Positions 29,901 to 30,932 of a stretch of 32,000 nucleotides of DNA are shown piece by piece. The stretch is taken from NCBI GenBank assembly GCA_964475825.1, contig CAYYXT010000003.1, forward strand, positions 96,570 to 128,569, in the 5' to 3' direction. Below the pieces are notes generated by a model that made no database searches, was not told where the DNA came from, and was given only the letters and a program-made list of their open reading frames with translations. How positions within the stretch are numbered: the first letter of the stretch is position 1; each line of letters begins with the position of its first letter. A program made the position numbers and the translations under genes. The DNA is from an uncultured Nitrosopumilaceae archaeon (GTDB taxonomy: Archaea > Thermoproteota > Nitrososphaeria > Nitrososphaerales > Nitrosopumilaceae).

Positions 29901-30932
29901 TTATGGCATTAATACGGCTCTTGCTTGAATTTGAGAATTTTTTAGTTTTTTGAGAACTTCATTTGCTTTTTCTAACGGATATGTCTCTGTAATGACTACG
30001 AGATTTTTTTCATCACATATTTTGATGACTTGTTCCATATCTTTTGTTGATCCAATCACAGTTCCACGAATTGTCTTTTCCTCAAACGCAAAAAATGTTG
30101 GATTTTTACCAACTGTTGCAATTACGATTAATCCGCCTCTCTTTACTGACTTGATTGCAACATCAGTTACTATATCTGCTGGAGCAAAAACGATTGCAGC
30201 ATCTAGCATTCCATGCCTTTTTTTTAGTTCATCTAGAAATTCTTGATTTTCAGAAAAAGTCATAGTGTCTATTGCCCCTAATCTCTTTGCAACATCAAGA
30301 TGATTTTTACTACGTGAAAATGCAATAACATCACGAGGTAGTAGGCAAAGTTGTTGAAATTGGCAGTAATGTTACCAAATTCAAAATAGGAGACAGGGCA
30401 GGGATAACACCGTTACTTGAGGCGTGTAAAGTATGTCAATATTGTAAAGAAGGAAAAGAACAACTTTGTGAATCATCAGTAATTACCGGAGAGTCACTCA
30501 AAGGAGGATATGCAGAATACATTACAGTATCAGAAGATTTTGCAACAAAAATTCCGGAAAGCATGAAATCGGAATATGCAGCACCATTGTTCTGTGCGGG
30601 AATTACAGCATACAAGGCAGTAAAAGCTGCAGAACCACAATTACACAAAAAAATTGGTATATTTGGAATTGGAGGAGTTGGTCATATGGCAGTACAGTTT
30701 GCAAAAGTAGAAGGATGTGACCTGGAACTGTAGGCAAAGTCGGTGGAATTCCAATATCTTTCCAATCTCCCTCAATTCCATGCAGTTGTGAGTGACAAAC
30801 TCCACATGCCTCAATTTTTAATAAAATCTCATCTGGTTTTTTGATTTCATGTCTGTCAATTTCAGTCAATTTTAACGGATTAGTTTCAATGGGGGCACAT
30901 TCAGATAGTACCATGGCTCGCATTTTTTTCAT
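29901..30932 (-). pseudogene. Zinc-dependent alcohol dehydrogenase (MDR family) disrupted by a precise internal inversion
   Basis: N-terminal part on the minus strand (30932..30717: MKKMRAMVLSE...EACGVCHSQLHGIEGDW...PTVPGH). Middle part only on the plus strand (30332..30721: HEVVGKVVEIGSNV...CKVCQYCKEGKEQLC...GIFGIGGVGHMAVQFAKVEGCD). C-terminal part on the minus strand (30332..29901: DVIAFSRSKNHLDVAKRLGA...ARAVLMP*). Re-inverting the middle gives a colinear 344-aa ADH. Confidence 0.8.
30332..30721 (+). other. Inverted 390-bp (130-codon) central segment of the ADH gene
   Basis: The open frame continues ADH motifs (GHE junction, structural-Zn Cys cluster, GxGxxG) but on the opposite strand from both flanks. 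The junctions share ATCAC / GTGAC microhomology. Confidence 0.8.

Follow-up and report, generated by a model that had tools for sequence, protein, structure and literature searches.

The window analyzed here, a stretch of 32,000 nucleotides of DNA from an uncultured Nitrosopumilaceae archaeon, carries an MDR zinc-dependent alcohol dehydrogenase (ADH) gene that is divided into three pieces by an internal inversion. We think it likely that this is a very recent, microhomology-mediated inversion restricted to a single strain, and that the gene is a newborn ADH pseudogene in Nitrosarchaeum (Nitrosopumilaceae). The initial annotation of the window had offered three options, namely a very recent inversion, an assembly error, or a reversible switch. 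The first has proved well supported: the rearrangement is exactly reciprocal, the flipped sequence is 99.5% identical to that of a colinear relative, and all 161 related loci examined are colinear.

Translation of the window placed the ADH gene on the minus strand from 30932 to 29901, with its middle third on the plus strand. The three pieces are open, without an internal stop in any of them, as first described. Minus-strand positions 30932–30717 give 72 codons, starting with an ATG at 30932 and ending in ...TLPTVPGH; plus-strand positions 30332–30721 give 130 codons, reading HEVVGK...VEGCD; and minus-strand positions 30335–29901 give (R)DVIAFSRS...AVLMP followed by the stop codon. The locus can be laid out as follows.

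29901–30330, minus strand: C-terminal ADH piece, comprising the last base of the Asp201 codon, codons 202–343, and the stop
30331–30334, no strand assigned: left junction TCAC, one inverted-repeat arm, part of codon Asp201 in the restored gene
30335–30716, plus strand: inverted middle segment, comprising codons 73–200 and part of 201
30717–30720, no strand assigned: right junction GTGA, the other inverted-repeat arm, at codon His72 of PGHE in the restored gene
30721–30932, minus strand: N-terminal ADH piece, comprising codons 1–71 and the first base of the His72 codon, and including Cys43 (CGVCH)

One breakpoint falls in the His72 codon, which specifies a catalytic zinc ligand, and the other in the Asp201 codon. 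The N-terminal piece keeps its start codon and the region upstream of it, and reads on into antisense sequence to form a 109-aa open reading frame (ORF; 30603..30932), in which the 72 ADH codons are followed by 37 nonsense codons and a stop at 30603. The inversion had been called in-frame, but the term has no functional meaning for a segment that is read antisense and meets a stop after so short a run. Within the C-terminal piece, the longest remaining ORF is 120 aa (29901..30263) and starts at an internal Met, while the first start codon of the middle piece is the Met at 30563, which leaves 56 aa. The middle segment carries the structural-zinc residues C103, C106, C109, and C117, the catalytic Cys159, and the Rossmann motif GIGGVG (183–188). 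With 72 N-terminal codons, the middle third, and 142 C-terminal codons thus separated, none of the pieces is predicted to encode a working enzyme, and the scattering of the zinc ligands and the Rossmann fold over all three implies that the gene as encoded is dead.

A single flip was sufficient to repair this. Reversing 30331–30720 yields one 343-aa ORF with zero bases lost, gained, or duplicated, and symmetric intervals from 30331–30720 down to 30335–30716 restore the same ORF equally well. The inverted segment measures 390 bp including the repeat arms and 382 bp between them. The initial annotation was right that one flip restores a colinear enzyme, though its literal interval, 30332–30721, is asymmetric and off by one, and flipping it produces a frameshift and eight stops; the enzyme was also given as 344 aa, one residue too many. 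Similarly, an inverted microhomology of 4–5 nt had been described at the junctions. Four nucleotides stand, since TCAC (30331–30334) and GTGA (30717–30720) make a perfect 4-bp inverted repeat, and the fifth does not, A30330 and C30721 not being complementary.

The restored protein has the features of a complete enzyme. It matches PF08240 (ADH_N) with 102 bits against a cut-off of 23.5, over positions 1–104 of the 104 in the profile, and PF00107 (ADH_zinc_N) over its full length with 67.7 bits against a cut-off of 31.8. Its closest match in the PDB is the ADH of Geobacillus stearothermophilus (1rjw, E = 3e-72), against which the catalytic zinc ligands C43 (CGVCH), H72 (PGHE), and C159 (FCAG) and the four structural-zinc cysteines are aligned and conserved, and GIGGVG is aligned at 183–188. 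The presence of all MDR motifs, noted at the outset, was borne out by these two domains, the zinc ligands, and GxGxxG. The same domain pair, zinc-ligand motifs, and GxGxxG are common to 1rjw and to AdhP- and Ahr-like enzymes. However, no NCBIfam equivalog assignment was reached, the best matches being Ahr (221.7 bits, cut-off 470) and AdhP (218.5 bits, cut-off 344), and unlike in those enzymes the gene in the window is itself broken. By its domains and motifs the restored gene is an MDR zinc-ADH, and by the equivalog cut-offs it is not assigned to a specific enzyme. We also note that residues 201–208 (window 30309–30332), where the second Rossmann strand ends, include AFSRS where the NAD-dependent 1rjw has AVDIG, and that the top, sub-threshold NCBIfam match, Ahr, is an NADPH-dependent reductase. 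These two observations may point to a preference for NADP(H).

Comparison with relatives was then used to ask how the gene is arranged elsewhere. The restored protein is 97–98% identical, at 100% coverage, to hundreds of intact 343-aa Nitrosarchaeum ADHs from genomes and metagenomes. The full-length ADH domains and this end-to-end alignment with orthologues show that the split is real and not a chance coincidence of ORFs. Related loci were collected from GTDB species genomes (80) and JGI metagenomes (80), together with one locus from Logan (L005), and each of these 161 aligned to the restored gene in blastn as one colinear HSP. Pairwise dN/dS values for the ADH within the clade are 0.04–0.09, which points to strong purifying selection in Nitrosarchaeum and indicates that the ADH is functional there. 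When the window was compared with a Hainich-groundwater Nitrosarchaeum contig (L170), with which it is syntenic over a 21-kb stretch, the sole block in opposite orientation in ~12 kb was 30331–30717; a single discordance of this kind argues that the window assembly is not riddled with inversions.

We also searched for the inverted form itself. In neither the GTDB species representatives nor the JGI metagenomes did the left-junction 24-mer have an exact match, so the source MAG is not itself a species representative and the search gave no second sample. A search with the 109-aa fragment gave as its sole full-length match the same fragment (P0121; NCBI and Logan). Among the other short matches, 16 were looked at as possible instances of the inversion and rejected, being contig-end truncations, frameshifts, or fusions in unrelated assemblies; the remaining matches cover only the N-terminal two-thirds, which is ADH, or run the whole length at ~46–69% identity. 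A 51-aa query made of the junction and the antisense tail had no match, and is uninformative, as it also missed ADHs that share its first 14 residues. The exact restored protein is absent from a collection of 15 billion proteins, so that neither orientation is backed by a sister sample from this strain.

Two proteins in that collection (P0179 and P0180), in which an ADH N-terminus is fused to the C-terminus of a neighboring gene, were considered as a second inversion and rejected, because their contigs are alternating inverted concatemers in an ENA assembly of long-read style. These contigs (L168, ERZ26869290 ctg322632; L169, ctg325601) come from a more distant Nitrosopumilaceae relative and are built from copies, in alternating orientation, of an ADH N-terminal fragment, an 84-aa neighboring gene, and fragments of a thioredoxin-domain gene. 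Palindromic concatemers of this sort are typical of amplification or of long-read chimeras; we regard the two contigs as artefacts with no connection to the window, and they explain the odd fusion proteins.

The comparative data also bear on whether the three pieces could be a split gene, expressed independently and either reconstituting an enzyme or serving new functions. The absence of internal stops from all three is what such an arrangement would predict, but the youth of the event is enough to explain open frames. Moreover, the middle piece has no start codon before Met 30563, no single piece has the complete set of catalytic zinc ligands or the whole Rossmann fold, and, in the comparison with related loci that had been suggested from the start, the split arrangement was seen in no relative. 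We regard a split gene as next to impossible, and as effectively refuted by the comparative data.

We then considered whether the inversion could have been created by an assembler. The 109-aa and 120-aa fragment ORFs are recorded in two places only, the 158,894-bp NCBI contig and the Logan contig SRR6868923_2423674. Logan contigs cover the window from 19608 to 28220 and from 28491 onward with identical sequence. The break between them falls at a repeat of ~83 bp inside a zinc-finger gene; the assembler of the window resolved this repeat. As the Logan contigs break where the window does not, two assemblers have reproduced the inversion. Logan builds a 31-mer graph from which k-mers seen once are dropped and then applies a SPAdes-like simplification (PMC12424806). 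A 4-bp repeat is too short to produce a false edge in a 31-mer graph, which rules out a purely computational misassembly, and because singleton 31-mers are discarded, each junction 31-mer must have been read at least twice. Further, the Logan contig passes both junctions unbroken, so that any colinear branch was too weak to interrupt it. The contig paths of the two assemblers suggest that the inverted form dominates the reads at this locus in SRR6868923. Assembler error, the second option of the initial annotation, is therefore unlikely, as the NCBI contig and the 31-mer de Bruijn assembly of that run, made independently, have the same junctions. The NCBI and Logan assemblies very probably derive from the same reads, so their agreement is not independent confirmation of the biology, and only one sample is known to have the inverted form.

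The age of the event was estimated against the closest relative, L005, a 7-kb Logan contig from run SRR26787651 in which the gene is colinear. After flipping, the window differs from L005 at 22 of 4,713 nt (99.5% identity). Two of these differences lie inside the 390-bp segment, where SNP density is the same as outside. Five lie in the ADH gene, four synonymous and one non-synonymous, the latter a D/N polymorphism shared with other relatives, and the restored ADH has no residue unique to the window. The initial statement that there is no further decay agrees with these counts, and so few and mostly synonymous differences, with no unique residue, leave no trace of relaxed selection. On this comparison, essentially the whole 0.5% divergence from L005 would predate the event, unless the event never occurred in vivo. 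One of the five differences in the gene falls in the junction: the His72 codon of L005 is CAT, which reduces the repeat to 3 bp, and both junction sequences of the window imply an ancestral CAC. CAC is the His72 codon in 10 of 55 relatives, and the ancestor very probably had the perfect 4-bp repeat.

Next, we examined the sequence around the breakpoints. Both junctions share the same 4-nt inverted microhomology, and in simulations on this sequence random breakpoint pairs had an inverted microhomology of at least 4 nt with P = 0.025. There are no longer or imperfect inverted repeats at the junctions, the flanking bases not being complementary. In the colinear gene of L005, the strongest local inverted repeat has 21-nt arms that are 86% complementary with an 11-bp perfect core, a predicted DNA hairpin dG of −11.4 kcal/mol (z = −3.7), and a 19-nt loop into which the right breakpoint falls. 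The left breakpoint has no such hairpin structure. Hairpins with a stem of at least 10 bp number only four in the 32 kb, and their loops make up 0.15% of its bases, a figure to be read with the fact that the association between hairpin and breakpoint was noticed after the fact. In the window, the arms of this ancestral hairpin are found at two places.

30341–30361, no strand assigned: former left hairpin arm, moved by the inversion to the far end of the segment
30730–30750, no strand assigned: right hairpin arm

The inversion thereby turned the hairpin arms into a direct repeat. From these features, we infer an illegitimate, microhomology-mediated mechanism, for which the trigger was probably the strong hairpin with the right breakpoint in its loop. 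At a replication fork, the nascent strand would stall or break at the hairpin, and its TCAC 3′ end could pair with GTGA on the other parental strand, ~386 nt ahead. It would then copy the segment backwards and return via the same 4-bp pair, making two template switches, out at TCAC and back at GTGA. Alternatively, a reciprocal break-and-rejoin within the 4-bp repeat may have taken place. By either route, the product would be an exactly reciprocal inversion. A quasi-palindrome strand-switch model using the hairpin arms was also tried and rejected, as it fails to give the observed product; only stalling or cleavage at the hairpin was retained from it. Explanations of the 4-bp core by a restriction site or by a topoisomerase stagger were considered and dropped.

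The same features could be expected if the inversion had been made in vitro, for instance when low-biomass DNA was amplified by phi29 multiple displacement amplification (MDA) or when a polymerase switched templates as the library was prepared, and then faithfully assembled, with the gene intact in the organism itself. MDA chimeras are mostly inverted joins primed at 2–21 nt of complementarity (Lasken & Stockwell 2007, PMC1855051), a range that includes the 4 nt of our junctions. They join sites on the same molecule a few hundred base pairs apart (PMC1855051), and the window is similar in this. The hairpin at the breakpoint would stall polymerases in vitro as well, and an association of microhomology with a hairpin is likewise expected of in vitro template switching. 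In addition, the inversion was seen in one run only, the ADH is without any decay, and the inverted-concatemer artefacts described above show that the same locus has been affected in another public assembly. MDA chimeras are, however, minority products with single junctions and intervening deletions (PMC1855051), whereas the window has two exactly reciprocal junctions, with nothing lost, that dominate two assemblies. Both junction paths beat the colinear path in a 31-mer graph cleared of singleton k-mers and in a second assembler, and the ~12 kb compared with L170 holds no further discordance of orientation. We thus view an in vitro origin as unlikely, though as the main rival explanation, and favor an inversion that took place in the cell.

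A reversible intragenic inverton, that is, a programmed on/off switch of the ADH worked by a recombinase encoded elsewhere in the genome, was the third option. Bacteria are known to have intragenic invertons that bring in premature stops, and there is a report of one from an archaeon (Chanin et al., bioRxiv 10.1101/2023.03.11.532203). The window resembles these in that the inversion lies within one coding sequence, truncates its product, and is bounded by inverted repeats, and an exactly reciprocal inversion so bounded could in principle flip back. A characterized intragenic inverton, however, has an 11-bp repeat and needs an invertase, and those invertons in general have repeats of ~11 bp or more; the window has 4 bp without extended similarity, and we took ~10 bp or more as the length of a recombinase site. 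Pfam scans of the window (29 ORFs of at least 100 aa taken as genes, plus a 78-aa neighbor) found no recombinase, transposase, or integrase, in line with the initial remark that no recombinase gene is visible; the scanned ORFs are ordinary chromosomal genes only, and the window also has no tRNA genes or Rfam matches. The flipped state occurs in none of the 161 related loci and in none of the homologues listed, and the supposed site is not conserved, being weakened to 3 bp in the closest relative by CAT in place of CAC. A switch had been proposed, but with a 4-bp repeat, no recombinase in the window, and no relative in the inverted form, nothing supports it, and we judge an inverton of the known kind to be very improbable. 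A genuine toggle of another kind, in which a minimal 4-bp core beside a hairpin is acted on by an unrecognized recombinase or structure-specific enzyme, is a longer shot still; if true, it would be a form of archaeal phase variation invisible to inverton finders based on repeats. The inversion that we favor is not programmed and is not appreciably reversible.

Seen as a mutation, this inversion is of a type already known, and we regard it as a tidy and instructive instance and not as a surprising one. FoSTeS/MMBIR-type events and E. coli inversions between short inverted repeats are microhomology-mediated inversions that arise by template switching or illegitimate recombination. The window is like these in its 4-nt microhomology at both junctions, the in-place inversion of less than a kilobase, a breakpoint in structure-forming sequence, and a single, non-recurrent event. 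It differs in its perfect reciprocity, without templated insertion, duplication, or deletion, which makes it cleaner than many replication-based rearrangements. To our knowledge, such inversions are undocumented in ammonia-oxidizing archaea. If real, the event shows a gene caught at the moment of its death, before secondary decay, in a streamlined archaeon, and it offers a small data point on how illegitimate rearrangements originate in Nitrosopumilaceae. It would also mean that the organism can do without an otherwise strongly conserved ADH in at least one setting. For annotation, the locus is a warning that the two "hypothetical proteins" of 109 and 120 aa are fragments of one ADH.

Elsewhere in the window is a block of ~19.1 kb (953–20095) that the syntenic contig L170 lacks. 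A 12-bp direct repeat, TATTTAATTCAA, borders the block on both sides (941–952 and 20096–20107), and L170 has a single copy of it. Its genes are stress- and metal-related, coding for Usp, an amino-acid permease, HSP20, PCMT, two DsbA-like thioredoxins, a TRASH/AsnC regulator, a rhodanese, a P-type ATPase of the copper-type HMA kind, and CBS and Vgb_lyase-like proteins. The block, which has no visible integrase or tRNA gene and the same GC content as the remainder of the window, resembles a strain-variable island. A second, smaller block (24620–26477) is also missing from L170. The genes noted in this second block, and a further gene between it and the ADH, are as follows.

24781–25605: FAD/NAD-binding oxidoreductase, within block 24620–26477
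25804–26211: Fic/DOC protein, within block 24620–26477
28143–28559, minus strand: gene with two treble-clef zinc-finger domains (PF23477, E = 4e-39)

The two zinc-finger domains of the last gene are encoded by near-identical repeats of ~83 bp (28168–28250 and 28438–28520), with short Gly/Ser/Arg/Tyr-rich repeats between them, and the ~83-bp repeat explains why the Logan 31-mer contigs of two runs both start at 28491. Finally, a 700-bp spacer (29204–29900) separates an AAA_33 kinase-like gene from the ADH stop. It has no Rfam match, and no gene was called in it by Logan (SRR6868923_2423674, L005). The spacer is syntenic in Nitrosarchaeum relatives, with 77–82% identity as against 91–95% for the flanking genes.
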